Under the pieces are notes generated by a model. It did not search any database. It saw nothing but the letters and a program-made list of their open reading frames with translations, and had not been told where the DNA came from. From positions 1 to 21,914 of the forward strand of contig JBCCQY010000161.1 in assembly GCA_039208735.1 (NCBI GenBank): a DNA stretch of 21,914 bases. Direction: 5' to 3'. The DNA is from Myxococcota bacterium. GTDB taxonomy: Bacteria > Myxococcota_A > UBA796 > GCA-2862545. Every line of letters begins with the position of its first letter. Within the stretch, counting starts at the first letter, position 1. Positions 1-18,445 of this stretch are shown here, piece after piece. The translations under genes and the position numbers were made by a program.

Positions 1-456
1 GTGGGCGGAACCGTCGACTGCTTGGACGACAATACGGTCCAGTTCGAGATGTCGACCACCGGCCCGGCCGCGAGCACAGAAGTGTTCTCGCAGGAAACCG
101 GCAACAGCAGCCCCTCCGGCCAGTACTCGGACAACCACAACCTCGATTCCATCGGAAACGGAGAGTGGGAGCAGACGCTCGCGACGGGTGTGAATCCTCC
201 CGTCACGGATGAGTCCACGTTGTTCCGCTGCGACCGCAATGCCCAGGACTTGCCCTACCACCACAATGCAGGTCCGGCTCTCGTCATGAGCTACATCTTC
301 CGTGCCTACGACTCTACTGGCACCGAATTCGACTGCGTGTCCGTCGGACACGACCCGGCCGGCATTATCGCGGGCACCGAAACGCGCGTGAACGAGCCCA
401 CGAACGCCTCGGACATCAGCGCGGTCAACTGCCGCATCGAAGAATTCACCTACTGA
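1..456 (+). CDS. Hypothetical protein, probably 5'-truncated; likely exported or lipoprotein
   Basis: Open from the window edge to TGA 454-456. GC3-rich codons, acidic Thr/Ser/Asn-rich composition, four Cys. Followed by a clear terminator. No family motif recognised. Confidence 0.7.
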   Translation: MGGTVDCLDDNTVQFEMSTTGPAASTEVFSQETGNSSPSGQYSDNHNLDSIGNGEWEQTLATGVNPPVTDESTLFRCDRNAQDLPYHHNAGPALVMSYIFRAYDSTGTEFDCVSVGHDPAGIIAGTETRVNEPTNASDISAVNCRIEEFTY

Positions 457-535: not shown

Positions 536-2545
536 CTACTTGTCGCCCGTCGCTGAGAGTTCAGTAGCGAGGTTGATGAACGTGCCCTCGAGTTCGAGCG
601 ACTCGTTGCAGAAGTGGAAATCGCCCGGACCGCTCGCCATGTTCGACAAGAAGCTTTGCTGAACCTGGTCGCCGACGCCCACCGTGATGATGCGAGCCCC
701 CATCGCGCGCAGATCGTAGACCTGCTTCATGGTGGCATCCGGATCATCGGGGTGACCGTCGGTCATGACCACGAACACCCGCTGGATGCCCGCTTTGGGC
801 TTGAGCAGGGTGCGCGCGTCGTACAGGCCCTCGCTCATCGGGGTCGACCCAATGGGGGTGAGCGAGTCAATCGCCCAGCGTAGGCGATCGAGGTTGGCGG
901 TGAGCGTCGATTTGACTCCGCCGGGGAACGCGACAACCGAAACCTGCCGGTTGGGTGACTGCAACGTCCGCTGGACAAAGGCGAGAGCTGCGCGCTTCGC
1001 GTTCTCGATGTTGTTGCCATACATCGACCCGGAACAGTCGATCACAAGCGAGACCCACATGGGCGCTCGGTTGTTGGCGAGATCTTCGAGGGTGACGTGT
1101 CCGCCTGCGAGTCGGTGGGGCAGGATCTGCCCTGACTCGAGGTCCATTGCTTCGACCTCGACAATGCCATTGCTGTTGTAGCGGTAAGTCACCGACAACC
1201 GGGCTTGCCCCGCAGGTCGTGGCGCAATGCCGTAGAACTCGAAATGCCCCAGGACCGTCGAGTCAAGCGGGTTCTCACTCTCCCCTTGGACGAGCCAAAG
1301 GTCGATGGTGGCCTGCCCGTCGTAGGTCGTGGAGTAGTCATCGCGCGTCTTCTCAGCAGGAATCCGCGTGTTCTTCTTGATGATCTTCGAGTTGTAGAGC
1401 TGTCCGTCGCGGAACACGACCATGCCAAGCGAATGCGAGGTGACGTCGTGCGTCCGAATGTCGACGGGCGAGACCTCGCCGCGCAGTTCAGCCGACTCGA
1501 TGGCTGCCGTAAGCGCAGCCCCCAACGCAATCGCTTCGTCGGGGTTGATGTCGGTCGCGGGTGGCTTCCCAAACAGGTCGGTCAGCATGTTGCGGACCAT
1601 CGGCATCCGCGTCGACCCACCAGCCAACAAGACGACATCGACATCTTCGGGCGCACACTGCGCTTCGGTGAGCACGGCCTTGGTCAACACTTCGGTGCGC
1701 TCGAGGAGATCTCTCGTAAGGTCCTCGAACGTTTCCCGCGTGACGGCCAGGCGCATCACCTTGTCACCGAAATCGTGGAAGATGTTGCACTTGGGCCGAC
1801 GGGTGAGGCTGATCTTCGCACTCACGCATTTGCTACGTAGATCGTGGTAGCTCGACAACTCTTCAAGTGGATCGACGCCGTGCTTCTCTTTGAAGGCGGC
1901 TGCGACATGCTTGATGAGGCGATCGTCCCAGTCTTTGCCCCCGAGCCGATGATCCCCATCGGTGCCCACGACGTTGATGTCGTTGCCCTCGATGTCGCAC
2001 AGGGTGACGTCGAACGTTCCGCCGCCAAGGTCGTAGACCAAGACCCGAAGATCACGGCCTGCGTTGTTTAGGCCATACGCAAACGCAGCGGCAGTCGGCT
2101 CGTTGATGAGCTTGAGGACCTTGAGTCCTGCAAGTTCGCCAGCCTTGAGCGTGGCCCGACGCTGCACGTCATTGAAGTACGCGGGCACCGTAATGACGGC
2201 TTGTTCAACGGGCTCACCGAGGCGCAATTCAGCGTCCCGCTTGAGCTTTCCGAGGATGTGGGCCGACAATTCCTGTGGATTGTAGTCCTTACCCTTGAAG
2301 CTGAAACGGAAGGTTTCATCGCCCATGTGCCGCTTTACGAACTCTACAACCTGCTCGGGGAGCACCACGGCCATGTGCTTGGCGTAGCTCCCGACGGAGA
2401 TGGCATCGTCCTCGAAAAGGAGCACGCTCGGCGTGATGCGGTCTCCTTCCGCGTTGGGCAACACTTCGGGTACCCCGTGTTGATTCACGTACGCAATGGC
2501 CGAGAAGGTCGTCCCGAGGTCGATCCCGACCGCACCAATTGCCAT
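536..2545 (-). CDS. Hsp70-family protein with C-terminal von Willebrand factor A domain (Hsp70-vWA fusion)
   Basis: Hsp70 motifs GIDLGTT, TVPAYF, INEPTAAA, DLGGGTFD, LAGGSTRMP, NPDEAIALGAA. SBD-beta KNTRIP...QGE...NGIVEVEA. vWA MIDAS DCSGS (1025-1039), GSTPM, MTDG. SD AGGAGG at 2554-2559. Confidence 0.92.
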   Translation of the reverse strand: MAIGAVGIDLGTTFSAIAYVNQHGVPEVLPNAEGDRITPSVLLFEDDAISVGSYAKHMAVVLPEQVVEFVKRHMGDETFRFSFKGKDYNPQELSAHILGKLKRDAELRLGEPVEQAVITVPAYFNDVQRRATLKAGELAGLKVLKLINEPTAAAFAYGLNNAGRDLRVLVYDLGGGTFDVTLCDIEGNDINVVGTDGDHRLGGKDWDDRLIKHVAAAFKEKHGVDPLEELSSYHDLRSKCVSAKISLTRRPKCNIFHDFGDKVMRLAVTRETFEDLTRDLLERTEVLTKAVLTEAQCAPEDVDVVLLAGGSTRMPMVRNMLTDLFGKPPATDINPDEAIALGAALTAAIESAELRGEVSPVDIRTHDVTSHSLGMVVFRDGQLYNSKIIKKNTRIPAEKTRDDYSTTYDGQATIDLWLVQGESENPLDSTVLGHFEFYGIAPRPAGQARLSVTYRYNSNGIVEVEAMDLESGQILPHRLAGGHVTLEDLANNRAPMWVSLVIDCSGSMYGNNIENAKRAALAFVQRTLQSPNRQVSVVAFPGGVKSTLTANLDRLRWAIDSLTPIGSTPMSEGLYDARTLLKPKAGIQRVFVVMTDGHPDDPDATMKQVYDLRAMGARIITVGVGDQVQQSFLSNMASGPGDFHFCNESLELEGTFINLATELSATGDK

Positions 2546-2653
2546 TGAGGGTGCCTCCTGCGGGCCACGGACCCGACGATTGCCCAGGGGTCAGACGGGG
2601 TGTGCTGGAGTATATCGGAGGCGCGGTCCACGACAAACCACCGGAGAGCCACG

Positions 2654-3244
2654 ATGCGCCCCGTTCTCCTGGCATCCACTAGCGCGGTTCGGCTGCGGAT
2701 GCTGACAAATGCGGGACTTACGGTCCGCGCCGTCCCTTCTCACGTAACGGAAGCGATCCCGGCAAATCCACAGAACGTCACCCAGGTGGTCGAGGACTTG
2801 GCCCTCGCCAAGGCCCGGGCGGTGTTCGAGCAGAACCCAGGGCACATCGTGATCGGAGCCGATCAGCTCGCCTTCGACCCGGACGCCCCGCACGATCCAT
2901 TCGGCAAGCCACGCGATCCCGACGATCACCTCGCACGACTGAAAGCGCTGCGCGGCAAGTCCCATGTCCTGGTCACGGGCTTTGCGATCCTTGAGGCCGA
3001 AACAACGATTATCGATCACGACATCACGACGATGCACGTTCGCGCCGACCTGTCGGACGAAGAACTGGCCGCCTACGTGGCCACCCAAGAAGGTTCTGGC
3101 TGTGCCGCAGGATACGCCGCCGAAGGACGGGGAGGCTTCTTGTTCGAGCGGATCGACGGTGACTTTTTCAACGTGCTGGGCTTGCCTGTACTGAAGGTGA
3201 TCACCGCCCTGCGGACCCTCGGCTGGCGAGCGACCAATGGCTGA
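2654..3244 (+). CDS. maf: Maf-family nucleotide pyrophosphatase, YceF-like subtype
   Basis: VLLASTSAVR, AKARAV, IGADQ, GKP, GCAAGYAAEG, NVLGLP. Start placed at ATG 2654 behind GGAGAG. Confidence 0.9.
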   Translation: MRPVLLASTSAVRLRMLTNAGLTVRAVPSHVTEAIPANPQNVTQVVEDLALAKARAVFEQNPGHIVIGADQLAFDPDAPHDPFGKPRDPDDHLARLKALRGKSHVLVTGFAILEAETTIIDHDITTMHVRADLSDEELAAYVATQEGSGCAAGYAAEGRGGFLFERIDGDFFNVLGLPVLKVITALRTLGWRATNG

Positions 3245-4025
3245 TCCCGATTCGTTGGCGGATCTGATCGCCGATGTGCGTGCCGTGCTTGAGGACGCTT
3301 CGCTTCGAGGCGTCCTCGCCGAAGACGGTCGCCTCCCGCCTCCGCCCGCCGCTCCTGCAGGAGCTCCGCCAGAGCCTCGCACCGCCAAACCGTCCGGAGA
3401 GGCCAACCCGGCGTGGTCCTCCCTGGCCACCGAAGCCCGAGAAGCGCGCCCCGACGCAGCCGGACGCCTCGCCCGGGTGCGGGAGGAGCTGGGTGACTGC
3501 CAGCGTTGCGGACTCGCCAAAGGGCGCAAGACCCTCGTGTTTGGTGTGGGGGATCCCGATGCCGACCTCGTCGTGGTGGGCGAGGCCCCCGGCCACGAGG
3601 AAGATCGCCGCGGCGAACCCTTCGTGGGCGCGGCCGGCCAGATGCTCGACAAGATGCTCGAGAACGTCATCGGTTTACCCCGATCGAAGGTCTACATTCT
3701 CAACGTGATCAAGTGCCGTCCTCCGAAGAACCGCAATCCGTTGCCCGATGAAGTGGAGGCCTGCATGCCATTCTTGCGAGGTCAGATCGAGGCGATCGAG
3801 CCGAAGGTGCTCCTTGTCTTGGGAAGCGTGGCCTTCAAATCGCTGTTCGATACGAGCCGCGGCATTACCCGCGCCCGCGGCATCTGGACCGAATACGAGG
3901 GCACGCCCGTCATGCCGACGTTTCACCCCGCTTACCTGCTCCGGCAGCCCCAGGACAAACGGCTCACCTTCGAAGACTTGAAGGCGGTCCGTCAGCGCTA
4001 CGATGAATTGGGCGGGCGCCGCTGA
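3237..4025 (+). CDS. Uracil-DNA glycosylase, family 4 (4Fe-4S)
   Basis: CQRCGL, VGEAPG..ED..GEPFVG.AG, NVIKCRPP.NRNP...E...C, TFHPAYLLR. Overlaps the maf stop by 8 nt. Confidence 0.95.
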   Translation: MADPDSLADLIADVRAVLEDASLRGVLAEDGRLPPPPAAPAGAPPEPRTAKPSGEANPAWSSLATEAREARPDAAGRLARVREELGDCQRCGLAKGRKTLVFGVGDPDADLVVVGEAPGHEEDRRGEPFVGAAGQMLDKMLENVIGLPRSKVYILNVIKCRPPKNRNPLPDEVEACMPFLRGQIEAIEPKVLLVLGSVAFKSLFDTSRGITRARGIWTEYEGTPVMPTFHPAYLLRQPQDKRLTFEDLKAVRQRYDELGGRR

Positions 4026-11171: not shown

Positions 11172-12035
11172 ATGTGGGGCTGGATGATGTGGATGACGGC
11201 GCAGGCAGGATCTCCTGTCACGCTCAACTACGCCGCGCCCGTGACGTGTCCGAGCGCCGATCGCTTTGCCGACGAGGTGTCGGCTCGGCTCGGACGGCTG
11301 GCGTTCGGCAGCGACGGTGAGGCGCTAAGGGTGGAGCTCCGCGAAGGCCGGGAGCAGTGGGTCGGGCAGACGCGCCAGGGCAGTCGTGTCCGAACGGTGC
11401 AGGGTGAGACCTGCGACGCCGTGTTCGCCGACCTCGTCACCGCGGTGGCGGTGGCCTTCGACGCCCCGCCCAAGACCCCAGAAGCACCGCCCCCTCCCAA
11501 GCTCTCACCGCCAAAGGCCGCCCCACCGGAGTCGCTGACAACCTACCGCCGCGAGCATCTGCGCATTCAGGGGCTCGAGACCTACACCGTGGACGGACCG
11601 GACCAGAACCCCGCTCCTGCGATGCGGTACCAGTGGGGGGTCTACGATGGCCGTGAACGCTTGCTGAACACGAGGGAGTTCCTGCAAGCCGCAGGTGATT
11701 CCCAGCTCCTCGATGCATTCGAGCGCAAGCACAAGCGCCAGAACACAGCGGCCGCCACTCTGATGACCATCGGAGCGGGGTTGAGCCTCGGCGCCCTCAC
11801 GAGCAGCTTGGCCAACCTCGACCGGGACGTCACCGCAACAGAGGGCGTGGCCATCATGAGCGGCGCGGTCCTGGTGAGCGCCGGGGCGTTCATGGTGGTG
11901 GACCGGCGTCAGAAGATGGTCTACGTCCACCGCAATATCGAGTTGGAAGTTGCGGAGCGCCTGGCGGACGAGCACAACGAGCGCCTGCGGCAAGAGCTTG
12001 GTCTAACCGCGGCCGAAGCGGCGGCCCTCGATTGA
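11172..12035 (+). CDS. Hypothetical membrane protein upstream of the ECF sigma
   Basis: SD GGAGG; N-terminal Cys-pair domain (CPS...F...V.ARLG ... C), Pro-rich linker, two C-terminal hydrophobic segments. Confidence 0.75.
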   Translation: MWGWMMWMTAQAGSPVTLNYAAPVTCPSADRFADEVSARLGRLAFGSDGEALRVELREGREQWVGQTRQGSRVRTVQGETCDAVFADLVTAVAVAFDAPPKTPEAPPPPKLSPPKAAPPESLTTYRREHLRIQGLETYTVDGPDQNPAPAMRYQWGVYDGRERLLNTREFLQAAGDSQLLDAFERKHKRQNTAAATLMTIGAGLSLGALTSSLANLDRDVTATEGVAIMSGAVLVSAGAFMVVDRRQKMVYVHRNIELEVAERLADEHNERLRQELGLTAAEAAALD

Positions 12036-12084
12036 AGCGCATTCGGCGAGTTGCCACGCCGGACCTGGCCCCTTACTGCGCCGC

Positions 12085-12594
12085 GTGACAGGTCCTTCCC
12101 TCCCAGCGAAGGTGTTGTCGGACATCTACACGGAGCACTTCGCCTTCGTGTGGCGCACGCTTCGTCGCCTTGGTGTCGACGCTCGTCATGCCGAGGATCT
12201 GGCGCAAGAGGTGTTTGTCGTCGTCCACCGTCGTTGGGCGACGTATGACTCGACCCGTCCCCTCAAGCCGTGGTTGTTCGGCATCACCTACAACGTCACC
12301 CGCGATCATTGGCGTCGGGCCTCCACCCGTCACGAACGCCTGGCCGAACCCGAAGATCGCGGCGACAGCGACCCCCGATTTCGCGCTATCGAGGCGAGGG
12401 AGCTGGTCTACCTTGCCCTTCAGCGCCTGCCGGAGGAGCGCCGCACCGTGTTCGTGCTCTACGAACTCGACCATGTGCCCATGAAGGAGGTGGCGGAGCT
12501 CCTTCAGATCCCCCTCGATACCGCCTACTCGAGGCTTCGTGTGGGACGAGAAGAATTCCGGAAGGCCGCGACGCGCCTGCAGAGGGAGGGATGA
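12085..12594 (+). CDS. ECF RNA polymerase sigma-70 factor
   Basis: Region 2: FVWRTLRRLGV...AEDLAQEVF, WLFGI. Region 4: LPEERRTVFVLYEL...EVAELL.IP..TAYSRL. GTG start uncertain. Confidence 0.93.
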   Translation: MTGPSLPAKVLSDIYTEHFAFVWRTLRRLGVDARHAEDLAQEVFVVVHRRWATYDSTRPLKPWLFGITYNVTRDHWRRASTRHERLAEPEDRGDSDPRFRAIEARELVYLALQRLPEERRTVFVLYELDHVPMKEVAELLQIPLDTAYSRLRVGREEFRKAATRLQREG

Positions 12595-13229
12595 GCATCC
12601 GCAACCTCGATCCGAAACTTCGGCAGTTCCTCGATGAGGAGACCAATGCCCCGGTCCCTGACCTCGCGGAGCGGCAGGCTCGCGTGTGGCAGGGGATCGA
12701 AGCCCGGTTGGGGTTCGAGCCTCAGAGCTCTGAAGAAGTCGGCGACGTGGCCGCCTCGGCCACGAGGAACCTCGTCCCCGCCGTGGTGAGCGCGGCGCTG
12801 GGGGGTGTCGCGTTGGGCTTTGGTCTTGGGGTGTGGTTGTCGACCCGTCCGCTGCCGGATCCCGTAGGGCCCGACGTACCCATCGAGGTCCTGGGTCCAC
12901 CGCCGTTGCCAGCTCCGCCGCCGGTTCGTCCCTCTCCGGAGCCTGTCGCCCCCGCCCCGGCCGGGCGCACGCGGGAGCGGGCTCTGATCGAGCGAGCGCG
13001 CGTCTCCCTCAACCGCAACGACCCCCAAGAGGCATTGGTGACCTTGATGGGCCATGCGCGAGAGTTTCCCGCGGGCAAGCTCGTCGAGGAACGCGAACGA
13101 TTGATGATCCAGGCCTTCGATGCAGCCGGCCGTTCCGACGAAGCGCGGGAGCGTGCGGCGTCCTTCGTACGTCGCTTCCCAAACAGCGTGCATCTGCCGT
13201 TCGTGCGGAGGGTTCTGTCCGCCGACTGA
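12591..13229 (+). CDS. Putative anti-sigma factor (one TM, Pro-rich linker, TPR-like C-terminus)
   Basis: ATGA overlap with the sigma stop and SD GGGAGG. TM AVVSAALGGVALGFGLGVWL. C-terminal FP.G.L.EERE.L.I.A...F..RFPNS helical motif. Confidence 0.75.
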   Translation: MSIRNLDPKLRQFLDEETNAPVPDLAERQARVWQGIEARLGFEPQSSEEVGDVAASATRNLVPAVVSAALGGVALGFGLGVWLSTRPLPDPVGPDVPIEVLGPPPLPAPPPVRPSPEPVAPAPAGRTRERALIERARVSLNRNDPQEALVTLMGHAREFPAGKLVEERERLMIQAFDAAGRSDEARERAASFVRRFPNSVHLPFVRRVLSAD

Positions 13230-14418: not shown

Positions 14419-17223
14419 TCAGGGAGGTGGGGCGAGTCGACCGTCTGCAGACGCCGCCTGCCGCGCCGCAGGATAGCGCATCCAACCGTGGGTGCCCTCT
14501 TCAAGTACTCCGGCGGGCCAGTAATGTTGATCGAGCTTGAGTGGCTGCACCAGGCGCACGCCATCTCGATCTTCGGTGGTCACCCGCACGGATTCCCGAT
14601 GCTGGCGGCCCGCGATCGTGGCCAGAAAGGCATCCAGGGTCGGGGTGGGACGACCGTCGATCGCCACGATGCGCCGGGTAGGTCGCAGGCCGTGTCGCTC
14701 CGCGGGAGAGCCGTACCACAGCCATGCGACATACACGCCGTCGGCGGCGATGCCCTGCTGCGCTTCCACCTCGTAGTGGGGCTCATGGATGATGAGCCCC
14801 GCCCACGACACGATGCGGTCCACCCCACGGCCCTCGAGCGCCATGGTAGGAACCGTCACCACCTTCTCCTTCGCGTCTCGCAGGATCGTGATGCGAAGTG
14901 ACTCCCGCTGGGACAACGCCTCGAGCTTCTTGGCGTCATCGAGCGGTTCGCCTTCGATGTCGAGGACCAGATCGGTGGGTCGAAGGTCGGCGCGGGCGGG
15001 TGCAGCCCCATGGATGCGTAGGATCTCGTACACAAACCGCTGATCTTGCTTGGCGCCCAGCCGCTGCTTCATCCGCGCGTTGGACAGACCGCGGTCCGCG
15101 GCCTTGGAGAGCGACAAGGGGAGCACCTCAATGCCGAGCGTACGGTACACCGGTTCCCGGCCCTCCAAGAGGGGGTCCAGCACGGGGTGCAGGAACTCGA
15201 CGGGCATGCCGTAAAACCCTCGATCATTGTCGGCCTGATCTACAAAGCTCGCCCACAACGCCCGCATTTGGCCTCGGCGGTCCACGATGACCCCGCCGTA
15301 CGACTCCGTCGTCTCTTCCAACCACAGCCCGTCCAGATTGGCGTCACGAAAGCGTGGAGTCGACGAGGCCTGCAGATGGAGGTGATCGCGATCTTCGATC
15401 GTGGTCTTTTGGCTGACCACTTCGTTGTTCCCATCGAGCCCGACCAACCACACGGTGTCGTCTTCTTCAGGGCCTTCACGAGCCAGCGGAACGGCTTGCA
15501 CTTCGATGCCCGCGACATGAGCCGGGTCGTACTCCACGACGGCAATGTTGTGGACGGGATGGAGGTAGCGGACCCGGCCCGGCACCCGGTGAGCGCCGCC
15601 AAACGTGATCTGGAGCTGGCCAAGACGAACCGGAACGGTGTCGCGATCCACCAGAACCAACCCACGGTCGACGTCGATGACCGTTCCCACCCCACGGAAG
15701 TTCGTGTCCTTGACGCCGGCGGTGGGATGCGGGACATCAAAGTCCACCATCACGAGCCCTCGAGCGACCTTTCGGGCCACGCGTTCCTCGTTGTCGACCG
15801 GCCACAACGTGGTGTTCTTCACGGTCGAGGTCGCCGGCGGCGGGGGCGCATCGACGCAGTCCCACAGGCCACTTGCGTCGCTACGCGAACACCGACGCAT
15901 GGGGTTCCACCGGCGATCCATCACCATGACGGTTTCGTAGGGCTGTTTCTCGTCGTCCACGAGGTAAAACCGAACGCGCATCCGCTGGCCATCCGCCTTG
16001 GTCTGCAGTTCGGCCTGCAGACGGTCCAGGTCGGGCGTTGTCACCCCGTCGATGTGGGTCACGACCGAACCTTCGGGCACATCCCCCGCTGACCACATGT
16101 GTCCGGCGACGGCCAGGTACACGCCCGCCACAGGAATGTGGTGGTTGCGGGCTAGGTGGTAGGACAGCGGGTTCAGGATGCCTCGACCCACTTCAAGGTA
16201 GGTGTCGGGCGTGATCGCATGGAGGTCTTGCACCGTGGCTTCGACGGTACGCTCCTCTCCGTCCCGCACGATGCTGATGGACACGGTGTCGCCGACGTGG
16301 CTGTCGAGAAAGGACTCGAGGCCGACAAAGTCGTCGATGGGTCGATCATCGAGCGAAATGAGGATGTCGCCCGGACGAAGGACCTTGGCGGCCGGTCCTT
16401 CGGGGACCACTTCCTCGACCTTCAACATGCCGCGCGACTGGGCCCGCGCCCGGAAGCGGGCCTCGATGGGATTTGGCAGGCCCAACAGCGCAAGTTCGTC
16501 GAAGGGCTCCAACCCAAACACCGTCTGGAGCGTGCCTCGTTCGATAGGCAGGCCGCGCTGCAACTTGTCGAGAGCGGGTGCAATGCGATCCAGCGGCAGG
16601 TAGAAGCTCGAAGCGGCGGAAAGGCTGCTTCCCGCGTTGAGGGCAAGCACTCGACCTCGGGCGTCGATCACCGGCGAGCCTGATGAACCGCCCGACGTGT
16701 TTGACGCCGCTTGGATGTAAAACGTGTTGAAGTCGTTGAAGCTGTCACTTCCGTAGACGGGAGCGGCCCGATCGACCCGCGCGAGCGTCCCATCGAGGAT
16801 GGAGATTTTCTCTCCCGCGTTGTTGCCAATGACGCGAATGTCGGTGCCAACCTGGGCCGCTTCGGGAGCCAACGGCAAAGCTACAAGTGGTGTGTGCTTC
16901 ACCTGCCCGGGATCGAACGCGTAAAAGCCAAAGTCGTGCACCGGGTCGCGGTAGAGCGGCCGCAGGTCTACCCGTTCATCTTCGAGGAACACCGCTTCGG
17001 CAATCACGGGTCCCGCGTGAACCATGTGTCGATTCGTGAGCAGGATGCCCTTCTTGGCGTCGACCACAAAGGCCGTACCTTGGCTGACGCCAGCATCTTC
17101 GGTATCGAAGTCGCGTGTGGCCGTGACCTGGACGGAAACCACAGCATTCTGGACACGCTTCAGGGTCGTTTGCCACGAGGGGGCGGCCAGCCCAATGCCG
17201 GCAAGGAGCAGTGCGAGAGTCAT
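14419..17223 (-). CDS. Nma111/Ynm3/Deg7-type HtrA serine protease (two trypsin-like domains plus multiple PDZ), with signal peptide
   Basis: Triad motifs LTNRHMV, YRDPVHDFG, TSGGSSGSPV; GEKISIL.GTLARVDR.AP.Y...FNDFNTFYIQAAS. Second degenerate protease domain (LVDRDTVP, HPVHNIA). PDZ motifs GPAAKVLRPGDIL, APARADLRPTDLVL, GSPAERHGL. Start ATG 17223 (alternative TTG 17241). Confidence 0.9.
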   Translation of the reverse strand: MTLALLLAGIGLAAPSWQTTLKRVQNAVVSVQVTATRDFDTEDAGVSQGTAFVVDAKKGILLTNRHMVHAGPVIAEAVFLEDERVDLRPLYRDPVHDFGFYAFDPGQVKHTPLVALPLAPEAAQVGTDIRVIGNNAGEKISILDGTLARVDRAAPVYGSDSFNDFNTFYIQAASNTSGGSSGSPVIDARGRVLALNAGSSLSAASSFYLPLDRIAPALDKLQRGLPIERGTLQTVFGLEPFDELALLGLPNPIEARFRARAQSRGMLKVEEVVPEGPAAKVLRPGDILISLDDRPIDDFVGLESFLDSHVGDTVSISIVRDGEERTVEATVQDLHAITPDTYLEVGRGILNPLSYHLARNHHIPVAGVYLAVAGHMWSAGDVPEGSVVTHIDGVTTPDLDRLQAELQTKADGQRMRVRFYLVDDEKQPYETVMVMDRRWNPMRRCSRSDASGLWDCVDAPPPPATSTVKNTTLWPVDNEERVARKVARGLVMVDFDVPHPTAGVKDTNFRGVGTVIDVDRGLVLVDRDTVPVRLGQLQITFGGAHRVPGRVRYLHPVHNIAVVEYDPAHVAGIEVQAVPLAREGPEEDDTVWLVGLDGNNEVVSQKTTIEDRDHLHLQASSTPRFRDANLDGLWLEETTESYGGVIVDRRGQMRALWASFVDQADNDRGFYGMPVEFLHPVLDPLLEGREPVYRTLGIEVLPLSLSKAADRGLSNARMKQRLGAKQDQRFVYEILRIHGAAPARADLRPTDLVLDIEGEPLDDAKKLEALSQRESLRITILRDAKEKVVTVPTMALEGRGVDRIVSWAGLIIHEPHYEVEAQQGIAADGVYVAWLWYGSPAERHGLRPTRRIVAIDGRPTPTLDAFLATIAGRQHRESVRVTTEDRDGVRLVQPLKLDQHYWPAGVLEEGTHGWMRYPAARQAASADGRLAPPP

Positions 17224-17278
17224 GGGGCCGCCGTATGCCAATCCTTGGCCGTCCGCTTCCCCAAGCCGCCCAAGGAGC

Positions 17279-18385
17279 CTACTTGGGGGCGGGATCGATA
17301 CGGACGTTGACCGTCAACTGGGCGGCCACGGGCTGACCATCGGCGGTGGCCGGGGTCCATCGCCAGCGTTTGAGCGCACGGGTCGTATCCGCGATGAGCG
17401 TATCGGGGCATTGCAAAGGGGTAATGCCTCCCGGCTTGCCTTTGTCATTGACCCACACGTCGAACCGACAGACCACACGTTCGCGAAGCGAGGCCTGGGC
17501 TTGTTTGGAGAGCTTCGGAGGGGGCCCCCGCAACGGTTTGGGAAGGGTGTCGGTCACTTCAGCGCGGGAGAGCTTGACCGAGTCCTGCTCCACGAACGTC
17601 ATGGATCCCGGCCCGAACACTTGTACATTGCCTGTCCGAAGGGTCGCCGGACGGAAGAACCGAGACCTGAACCGAACCACGCGGTAGGGCACTGCGCGGT
17701 GGAAGTACTCTCCGTACGTCCATTTCTCGAACGCCTGAAGGGTGGGTGCGACGAACACGGGATCGCAGCTCGTGACCTCGATGCGCTCGGGAGCTCCGTA
17801 CGGATCAATCTCGACCCGCACATCGCAATCGGGACGTCGCGTGTCGTTCGGCGCACGTTGCGTAGGGTAGACCGGGAACTTGATGGTGACCGGTCGAACG
17901 GCAAACGTGAAGATGCCGCGGTCGTTGACCACAAAGCGGGTCGCGGCCTGGGGCACCACGTAAAGGTCGGCCCGCGGGTTTGTCAGCGTGCCTTCACGGC
18001 CAAATACATAGATCAGTTCGCCAATCACCCGGTCGGCGCCGATGGGACCGTCCGTTTCGACGACCCACTGGTTTAGGGACCGCTCAATCGCGATTTGGGC
18101 CAAAGGATGGCAGCTCTCGACGACCTTTGGGACAAACGCCCCGTCCTGGATTTCGAGGGTGACCGGACATGCCCGGAGCCGACCTGAGAGGGCGGCGTCG
18201 GCCTGGGGTGGCGCGGCCTGTTCGAGGATCACCGAGACCTTAAGGCCGCCGTTCCTAACCTCGAATCCTCGGCGAATCGTCTCCCTTTCTCCGCGTTTCG
18301 CCGGCTCCTCGATCGCGCCCGGGACGTTGGTCGATACGTCGGGACTGGCGGAGGCGATCCTGCCGATCAGGGCAACGATTACCAT
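17279..18385 (-). CDS. Exported protein with three tandem TonB C-terminal-like domains
   Basis: Three repeats of C.V...I/V...G.......C...........L/F..W; the last ends WRWTPA..DGQPVAAQLTVNVRI, as in TonB_C. ATG 18385 with GGAGGAG. Confidence 0.65.
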   Translation of the reverse strand: MVIVALIGRIASASPDVSTNVPGAIEEPAKRGERETIRRGFEVRNGGLKVSVILEQAAPPQADAALSGRLRACPVTLEIQDGAFVPKVVESCHPLAQIAIERSLNQWVVETDGPIGADRVIGELIYVFGREGTLTNPRADLYVVPQAATRFVVNDRGIFTFAVRPVTIKFPVYPTQRAPNDTRRPDCDVRVEIDPYGAPERIEVTSCDPVFVAPTLQAFEKWTYGEYFHRAVPYRVVRFRSRFFRPATLRTGNVQVFGPGSMTFVEQDSVKLSRAEVTDTLPKPLRGPPPKLSKQAQASLRERVVCRFDVWVNDKGKPGGITPLQCPDTLIADTTRALKRWRWTPATADGQPVAAQLTVNVRIDPAPK

Positions 18386-18445
18386 GTCTCCTCCGGGTGG
18401 GTCCGCACCCACGTGAAGCTTGACTCTGGGAAGTGAGGAAGGTCA

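Follow-up and report, generated by a model that had tools for sequence, protein, structure and literature searches.

The stretch of DNA analysed here, referred to as the window, is a 21,914-nucleotide contig (JBCCQY010000161.1, assembly GCA_039208735.1) from a bacterium of the Myxococcota (GTDB lineage Bacteria; Myxococcota_A; UBA796; GCA-2862545). Near its left end, on the minus strand, lies a gene for a 669-residue protein in which an Hsp70 missing the alpha-helical lid is joined to a von Willebrand factor A (vWA) domain with a metal ion-dependent adhesion site (MIDAS). The gene is near-universal in the order to which the organism belongs, where it heads a conserved operon for a GrpE-like protein, a second lidless Hsp70 and a J-like protein with an apparent membrane anchor. 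We postulate that the fusion protein, as an Hsp70, remodels a narrow set of clients, its target likely being tethered through MIDAS-bound Mg2+, and that it works within a private two-Hsp70 machine. We give this interpretation an even chance of being correct.

Architecture and conservation of the fusion protein

On the same polypeptide Pfam detected HSP70, with E 3e-135 and its best match over residues 80-472, and VWA, with E 4e-17 over residues 500-647 (63.5 bits against a cut-off of 23.8). The features of the gene are as follows, NBD and SBD standing for the nucleotide-binding and substrate-binding domains.

536..2545, minus strand: Hsp70-vWA fusion gene (P0001), 669 aa; Pfam and open reading frame (ORF) call
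2554..2559, minus strand: Shine-Dalgarno sequence AGGAGG, 8 nt before the ATG; read directly
1481..2545, minus strand: NBD (residues 1 to about 355) with an intact catalytic set; alignment to E. coli DnaK and model
1442..1462, minus strand: interdomain linker DIRTHDV, where DnaK has DVLLLDV; mean column conservation 0.93
1100..1441, minus strand: SBD-beta, residues 369-482, altered pocket; alignment, superposition on 4B9Q up to residue 482
1061..1099, minus strand: connector retaining part of lid helix A (VTLEDLA); conservation 0.85
536..1060, minus strand: vWA domain, residues 496-669; Pfam, motifs, alignment and model
1025..1039, 842..844 and 758..760, minus strand: MIDAS residues DCSGS, Thr568 and Asp596
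557..595, minus strand: C-terminal vWA segment ELEGTFINLATEL at the alpha7 position; conserved on all faces

The original prediction, made from the letters alone, had described a complete actin-like NBD, a full SBD-beta and an intact MIDAS. Every motif that it named was located: FVKR (K71), NEPT (E149) and DLGGGT (T177) in the NBD, and DCSGS (503-507), GSTPM (T568) and MTDG (D596) in the vWA domain. The ribosome binding site that it assigned to the gene was also found. With an actin-like NBD carrying the catalytic Lys, Glu and Thr, and an SBD-beta, the protein belongs to the Hsp70 superfamily. It is not a DnaK equivalog: it scores 451 and 447 bits against NCBIfam DnaK cut-offs of 648 and 823, it has no alpha-helical lid and its linker reads DIRTHD. 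It likewise falls below the NCBIfam HscA cut-off (377 against 709 bits). The linker of about 16 residues said to stand in place of the lid does exist as a connector, but it carries a helix A stub, VTLEDLA aligning with GLNEDEI of DnaK and being helical at residues 486-490 in the model. The vWA part reads as a Rossmann-like fold with a complete DxSxS...T...D signature, from which binding of a ligand through Mg2+ is predicted; its nearest solved relatives, by sequence, are generic vWA domains. A promoter-like site at 2609-2636 was rejected as being at chance level (1 found against 0.5 expected).

Residue conservation was counted in 125 close homologues aligned to E. coli DnaK. The ATP-site residues D8, T11, T12, K70, E171, D194, T199, K270, G341, G342 and R345 (DnaK numbering) are kept in 125/125, as are D503, S505, S507 and D596 of the MIDAS; T568 is kept in 120/125. 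K70, E171, T199 and both MIDAS Asp residues are also present in all 44 of the more divergent cluster representatives. The loops of the MIDAS face rank among the best-conserved parts of the vWA domain (0.88-0.99). Conservation of the metal site across homologues, on which the original prediction had made itself depend, is thus complete for D-S-S-D in the close set and extends to 98/98 sequences of the distant clade, but the Thr is found in only 30/98 of the latter.

The remainder of the Hsp70 part departs from DnaK in three groups of changes. Residues that contact the J domain are gone: the D211 loop is deleted, E217 is mostly N and D477 is R (DnaK numbering), the last two being positions that we take to be J contacts. 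The role of D211 in that contact is described for DnaK (PMC8215388), in which the hydrophobic VLLL linker, replaced by IRTH in the fusion family, is required for allostery (PMC8215388). E230 has become K and E267 has become V, and the salt bridges K55-E267 and R56-E264 are absent, as in HscA. The substrate pocket is bulkier across the family (M404 to Y/F, A429 to T, F426 to Y, V436 to M/I). At the V436 position, M occurs in 61, I in 41 and V in 23 of the 125 sequences, the query having I414.

An AlphaFold2 (AF2) model of the fusion (predicted local distance difference test score, pLDDT, 89; predicted template modelling score, pTM, 0.79) resembled ATP-state DnaK 4B9Q, with a Z score of 51.9 and a root-mean-square deviation of 2.0 over 469 residues. 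The protein is thus predicted to adopt the ATP-type docked state. The linker segment forms a beta-strand (364-368) in this model, and the strand-helix order of the vWA domain was recovered; the fold searches barely probed the vWA part.

Distribution of the fusion and composition of its operon

With the junction and the vWA domain as query, 279 proteins were found; both Pfam domains, HSP70 and VWA, are present in every one of the 120 listed. Leaving out the query, identity over the junction-vWA region is 64-89% in this listed set. The close loci come mostly from assemblies labelled uncultured Myxococcota or 'Deltaproteobacteria', with some other labels. Among 300 genomes sampled from the phylum, the fusion was found in 42/43 genomes of the same order, 0/14 of the rest of the class and 0/243 of the rest of the phylum, using a single query at E 1e-18, a setting at which distant forms could be missed. 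The carriers seen in the order are metagenome-assembled genomes. Among 40 relatives, 38 gave a match over the SBD end and the vWA domain, the two misses being 82% and 71% complete. A contig from another study (X3) covers the junction at 1005-1285 with 4 differences. Presence in nearly the whole order and in other phyla shows that the fusion is no chimera, the possibility that the original prediction had named as the first threat to itself.

Further full-length fusions came from a profile search of 1.84 billion representatives. From the 150 matches listed, 45 were chosen by length and match; 44 of these are 28-48% identical to the query, and one of the 44 falls within the order's clade in the tree. 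The few named distant carriers are Desulfobacterales, Ca. Entotheonella, Ardenticatenales and, as a partial protein, Pirellulaceae. The architecture already exists in public databases, under a UniRef entry named 'VWFA domain-containing'. None of the 292 plasmid records with a match covered 80% of the SBD-vWA query, and no RNA holder is listed. An NBD tree of 64 sequences was rooted on two DnaKs, other sequences having been dropped after motif-based trimming failed. The order's two Hsp70s and two other proteins form one group in it (support 0.93); since the deep nodes are weak, the tree does not settle the number of fusion origins or the direction of transfer.

Operon composition was counted over 93 loci of the order (80 + 13), the denominators being loci with enough downstream DNA. 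On the same strand after the fusion come a grpE-like gene (85/87), a second Hsp70 gene (68/71), a J-like gene (60/67) and a gene for a TPR-zincin protein (48/58). In one additional locus (L090) the second Hsp70 is too decayed for the profile. Upstream lie maf, udg and an S1-repeat gene, followed by what we take, from sequence features, to be queA, tgt, yajC and secD; the fusion thus occupies one locus across the order. The original prediction had stated that the window holds no dnaJ or grpE. This is literally correct, yet it misleads: a whole contig (C161) makes up the window, in a genome of 288 contigs, 92.7% complete, and the partner genes lie on contig C23 (grpE-like 899-1408, second Hsp70 1412-3067, J-like 3131-3796, shortened). 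A relative, L001, is 95% identical and colinear over both contigs, with 1286 bp from the fusion stop to the grpE-like gene, which places the partners of the present genome about 1.3 kb beyond the left edge of the window. The picture of a single-chain chaperone free of co-chaperones had therefore to be given up. The same genome also carries a canonical dnaK and an HPD-containing dnaJ on contig C29 and a canonical grpE on contig C139.

The second Hsp70, lidless and with SBD-beta and helix A retained, carries a long stretch of low-complexity sequence inserted at the linker. In L087 (6345-8006), L089 (6919-8580) and L090 (6426-7997) its phosphate loop and its catalytic Lys, Glu and Thr are gone, and judged from these losses it appears to be a pseudo-ATPase beside an intact fusion. 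The insert (L081, that is contig C23, 1412-3067, and orthologues) contains an A-x-I-G-L-A-x-G-G-H (GLxxGGH) motif in 24 proteins, mostly from the closest loci, and the C-terminal tail reads hydrophobic-x-[VI]-x; a built-in pseudo-substrate could be formed by the motif or by this tail. The C-terminal acid was considered as a MIDAS ligand or an EEVD-like tag and rejected, VD ending 17/73 of the proteins, VE 7 and varied residues the rest.

The J-like protein consists, in order, of a J-like domain, a helical domain (weak TerB match), usually a second J-like domain (Pfam DnaJ), a weak Ig-like domain, a hydrophobic segment and sometimes PEGA. Its layout suggests a membrane-anchored protein. The beta-sandwich gives only a weak BACON_2 match in the order (E 0.03-0.05), and a search of the ESM Atlas with the N-terminus returned only unnamed clusters, under 0.9. 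In the first J-like domain QxxQxNP replaces HPD in 59/65 proteins. The HPD that marks J-domain co-chaperones occurs within the first 300 aa in 4/65 proteins of the order and in 0/20 from distant settings, so the partner does not qualify as one of them. This scarcity of HPD matches the altered linker and the lost J-contact residues of the fusion. The consensus of the GrpE-like protein shows a conserved acidic helix. The TPR-zincin gene (L017 12806-13627 and orthologues), 3' of the operon, is usually accompanied by an alpha/beta hydrolase gene; in the present genome the pair lies on contig C11.

Two lipoprotein-like genes are inserted on the opposite strand between the fusion and the grpE-like gene, both here and in L001. 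They (window 1-456, plus; L081 275-787, minus; L001 8712-9302) gave no significant Pfam family and one weak DUF4382 match. A distant paralogue of the first lies on contig C1. Positions 1-274 of contig C23 (L081) are a fold-back inverted duplication, 97% identical, of the 5' end of the lipoprotein gene, which probably arose as an artefact where the assembly broke between C23 and the contig of the window. The hairpin listed below likely ends the convergent lipoprotein gene.

1..456, plus strand: lipoprotein gene, 3' part, with its 5' end at the start of contig C23; colinearity with L001
481..517, plus strand: 12-bp hairpin and T-run; the U-tract is absent on the strand of the fusion gene

Relation to GAP1-N2 systems and to known chaperones

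A nucleotide pattern that links motifs of the SBD to those of the MIDAS retrieved 56 metagenome loci. Eight without an anchor ORF were left out; of the 48 with an anchor, L145 belongs to the order's clade and was excluded, leaving 47 distant loci. Twenty-two of these are at least 11 kb long, and they carry GAP1 (19), DO-GTPase (16), J-like (21), grpE-like (18) and second Hsp70 (20) genes. Over all 47, many of them short, GAP1 or GTPase was seen in 30. The N-termini of the J-like proteins are homologous between the order and the distant settings. At two of the distant loci, L116 and L135, there are apparently three Hsp70 genes in a row.

These neighbours point to a theme predicted by Kaur, Burroughs, Iyer and Aravind in 2020 (PMC7159879, section 29), the HSP70-GrpE theme of GAP1-N2 systems. 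As given in that section, it comprises an HSP70, a GrpE, a second HSP70 and a DnaJ-like domain joined to FNIII or other beta-sandwich domains near the membrane. By Pfam, the accessories HSP70, GrpE, second HSP70 and DnaJ domain are all present in the order's module, which is therefore not wholly undescribed. The text on the theme and two supplements do not name an Hsp70-vWA fusion, which may appear in Figure 6B or in Figure 1-source data 1 of the same paper. The claim that the system was undescribed thus stands for the fusion, on which no paper was found, and falls for the module, homologous to a theme already predicted. The literature search, with subscription papers mostly outside its scope, gave 0 matches for the exact phrase and found the term GAP1-N2 in one paper only; a term search of PMC8265645 found vWA absent from the text covered.

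The order differs from the GAP1-N2 systems in several respects. Its module lacks both DO-GTPase and GAP1 and has a near-universal, not a patchy, distribution, and its second Hsp70 keeps SBD-beta, the second HSP70 of the theme having no peptide-binding domain in the text of PMC7159879. GAP1-N2 was found in 2/101 genomes of the order (1 over the cut-off) and DO-GTPase2 in 8/101. Neither GAP1-N2 nor DO-GTPase (PF19993 only) was found in the present genome (92.7% complete), and no GAP1 or DO-GTPase occurs among the ORFs of the order's loci. At L156 (genome G038) a GAP1-N2 and a DO-GTPase match share contig C402, away from the Hsp70-vWA locus on contig C224.

Comparison with the DnaK-DnaJ-GrpE set shows shared NBD catalytic residues, the SBD-beta fold, predicted ATP-type docking and a GrpE-family partner. 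The fusion differs in being lidless with a vWA domain, in its IRTH linker, in the loss of J-contact acids and cleft salt bridges, and in coexisting with the genome's own canonical set. HscA-HscB and HscC-DjlB/C are closer in some details: K55-E267 and R56-E264 are lost, the V436 position is bulkier (Met in 61/125, as in HscA), the D211 loop is deleted in both HscC and the fusion, and HscA and HscC also have a dedicated, often membrane-bound J partner (PMC8215388). In the account of HscA, the V436 to M change is tied to narrow specificity, and the absence of both bridges goes with GrpE not being needed (PMC8215388, section 12). Unlike the fusion, HscA and HscC keep a shortened lid, have no vWA domain and do not use GrpE (PMC8215388).

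In the MoxR-vWA pairs (RavA-ViaA, CbbQ-CbbO), an ATPase chaperone works with a MIDAS-bearing vWA adaptor that binds the client. The fusion shares this pairing, but its motor is an actin-fold Hsp70 and not an AAA+ ring, and its adaptor is part of the same chain, so the likeness is one of analogy only. No AAA+ MoxR partner was found among the window genes or the recurring neighbours scanned. Nor were the PP2C and Ser/Thr kinase of the TerY-P triad found in the window Pfam scan or among the recurring neighbours, rarer neighbours lying outside the scan. The ribosome-associated complex (Ssz1/HspA14, zuotin, Ssb) includes zuotin, which carries HPD. As described in a review, that complex also combines two Hsp70s with a dedicated J protein, one Hsp70 being lidless and catalytically decayed in some lineages (PMC13580251). 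It is eukaryotic and ribosome-bound and is not known to contain a vWA domain or GrpE; its likeness to the module is one of composition, with homology in Hsp70. MoxR-vWA pairing is itself mentioned in PMC7159879.

Possible function of the fusion protein

Under our proposal, the vWA domain would bind a single dedicated target, with Mg2+ and an acidic side chain of that target as the contact, while gripping and release during the ATP cycle would be the task of the narrowed SBD-beta cleft. The tether would offset both the low affinity of a lidless cleft and the absence of the targeting usually provided by an HPD J domain. Nucleotide exchange on the fusion could be carried out by the neighbouring GrpE-like protein. 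The second Hsp70, whose catalytic site has decayed in some lineages, and the J-like protein could contribute a partner and a scaffold at the membrane. As to origin, derivation from the chaperone arm of GAP1-N2 systems, or common ancestry with it, is likely, and the module may now have a fixed cellular job in the order.

Several observations weigh against this proposal. Neither a client nor a MIDAS ligand was identified. The MIDAS Thr is substituted, mostly by Gly, in 68/98 sequences of the distant clade, and the C-terminal acid of the second Hsp70 is unconserved (D or E in 26/73). The altered linker implies that coupling between the ATP site and the cleft may be weak, and the HscA-like loss of salt bridges sits oddly beside a dedicated GrpE. 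The J-like gene is lost in L001, from the same genus, both the second Hsp70 and J-like genes are lost in L091 and L092, and in L089 the grpE-like gene is not beside the fusion. Since partners can be lost, the 'machine' is not obligatory as a whole; in the present genome, moreover, two genes on the opposite strand break the operon.

The likely ancestry of the module raises the question of whether it is still an anti-invader system. In that case an invader protein would be sensed by the vWA domain or by the Ig-like domain of the J-like protein, and the response would be an assembly built by the two Hsp70s, after the model put forward for GAP1-N2 systems. The frequency of GAP1 and DO-GTPase at the long distant loci, the homologous J-like N-termini and the HSP70-GrpE theme of PMC7159879 (section 29) speak for this. 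Conflict loci, however, are patchy and fast-changing, and here the gene is near-universal in the order, highly conserved and set in one housekeeping locus. GAP1-N2 and DO-GTPase are rare in the order, PADLOC gave no match for the core proteins of the module, and the conflict role of GAP1-N2 systems is itself only a prediction. We consider this interpretation rather unlikely. We judge it unlikely, too, that the vWA domain is an internal docking domain whose MIDAS binds an acidic residue of the second Hsp70, the GrpE-like or the J-like protein, leaving clients to enter only via the SBD clefts. The same partners do accompany the fusion in two very different genomic settings, the GrpE-like protein offers its acidic helix, and a second Hsp70 stripped of catalytic residues (L087, L089, L090) looks scaffold-like. 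Yet each single partner is absent somewhere beside an intact fusion while the MIDAS D-S-S-D is still invariant, and the acid at the end of the second Hsp70 is not conserved. Modelling residues 356-669 as a complex with the second Hsp70 and Mg (score 0.00, mark 0.32) lent weight to neither side.

The integrin alpha7 piston, in which movement of a helix switches the MIDAS, suggests yet another mechanism: the SBD cleft would capture the last vWA helix of its own chain (TFINLATEL) in a nucleotide-dependent manner, pull it off the vWA domain and so switch MIDAS affinity. In the best AF2 model residues 649-665 are non-helical and extended, with residues 661-662 overlying the substrate peptide fused in 7KZU and 7KRV; moreover, the C-terminal segment is conserved on every face, at 0.92 against 0.55-0.71 in the other five vWA helices. 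These signs are tempered by the low pLDDT of the last two blocks (64 and 55), by the L-x3-F-x2-[LI]A pattern of a normal amphipathic vWA helix, and by the tendency that AF2 may have to place free hydrophobic tails into Hsp70 clefts. The distant homologue P0176 shows an ordinary helix at 664-678 (pLDDT about 81-83) with no peptide overlap, and the tail-in-cleft pose is accordingly a lead only. Such a switch seems improbable. Equally long is the shot that the protein is an Hsp70 motor wired in this way to an integrin-type I-domain, its ATP cycle switching the MIDAS between low and high affinity without an HPD J domain, once part of a GTPase conflict system and now of an order-wide two-Hsp70 membrane machine. 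That the gene is an assembly chimera or a functionless, decaying DnaK copy can be dismissed almost entirely. Fragmentation of the metagenome assembly and the fold-back duplication at the adjoining contig end could have aroused that suspicion, but it is answered by the two-domain homologues, the near-universal presence in the order and the independent contig across the junction.

The genome contains two other DnaK derivatives, one lidless with a proline-rich tail (L083 5197-6972, contig C76) the other divergent in its NBD and atypical at its C-terminus (L085 3624-5543, contig C157). Elsewhere in the window, 14419-17241 (minus) encodes a protein of 940 aa that combines a trypsin-like domain with several PDZ domains, PDZ_1 among them, and is reminiscent of eukaryotic Nma111. 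At 11172-13229 (plus) there is an unannotated secreted or membrane protein, in a row with an ECF sigma factor gene and a probable anti-sigma gene. The 377-aa protein of 17279-18412 (minus) has apparently repeated TonB C-terminal-like domains, with one Pfam match at 309-371.

What lidless and extended DnaK derivatives do is a question put by a 2026 review (PMC13580251, section 6). The fusion offers an unusually clean test case for it, combining an invariant ATP site and an invariant metal site with defined cognate partners and near-universal presence in one order. It adds a vWA component, unnamed in the 2020 text on the theme (PMC7159879), to the chaperone arm of GAP1-N2 systems, and in the order this arm persists without the GTPases. 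If the proposed mechanism is true, this would be an Hsp70 targeted through a MIDAS domain instead of an HPD J domain.

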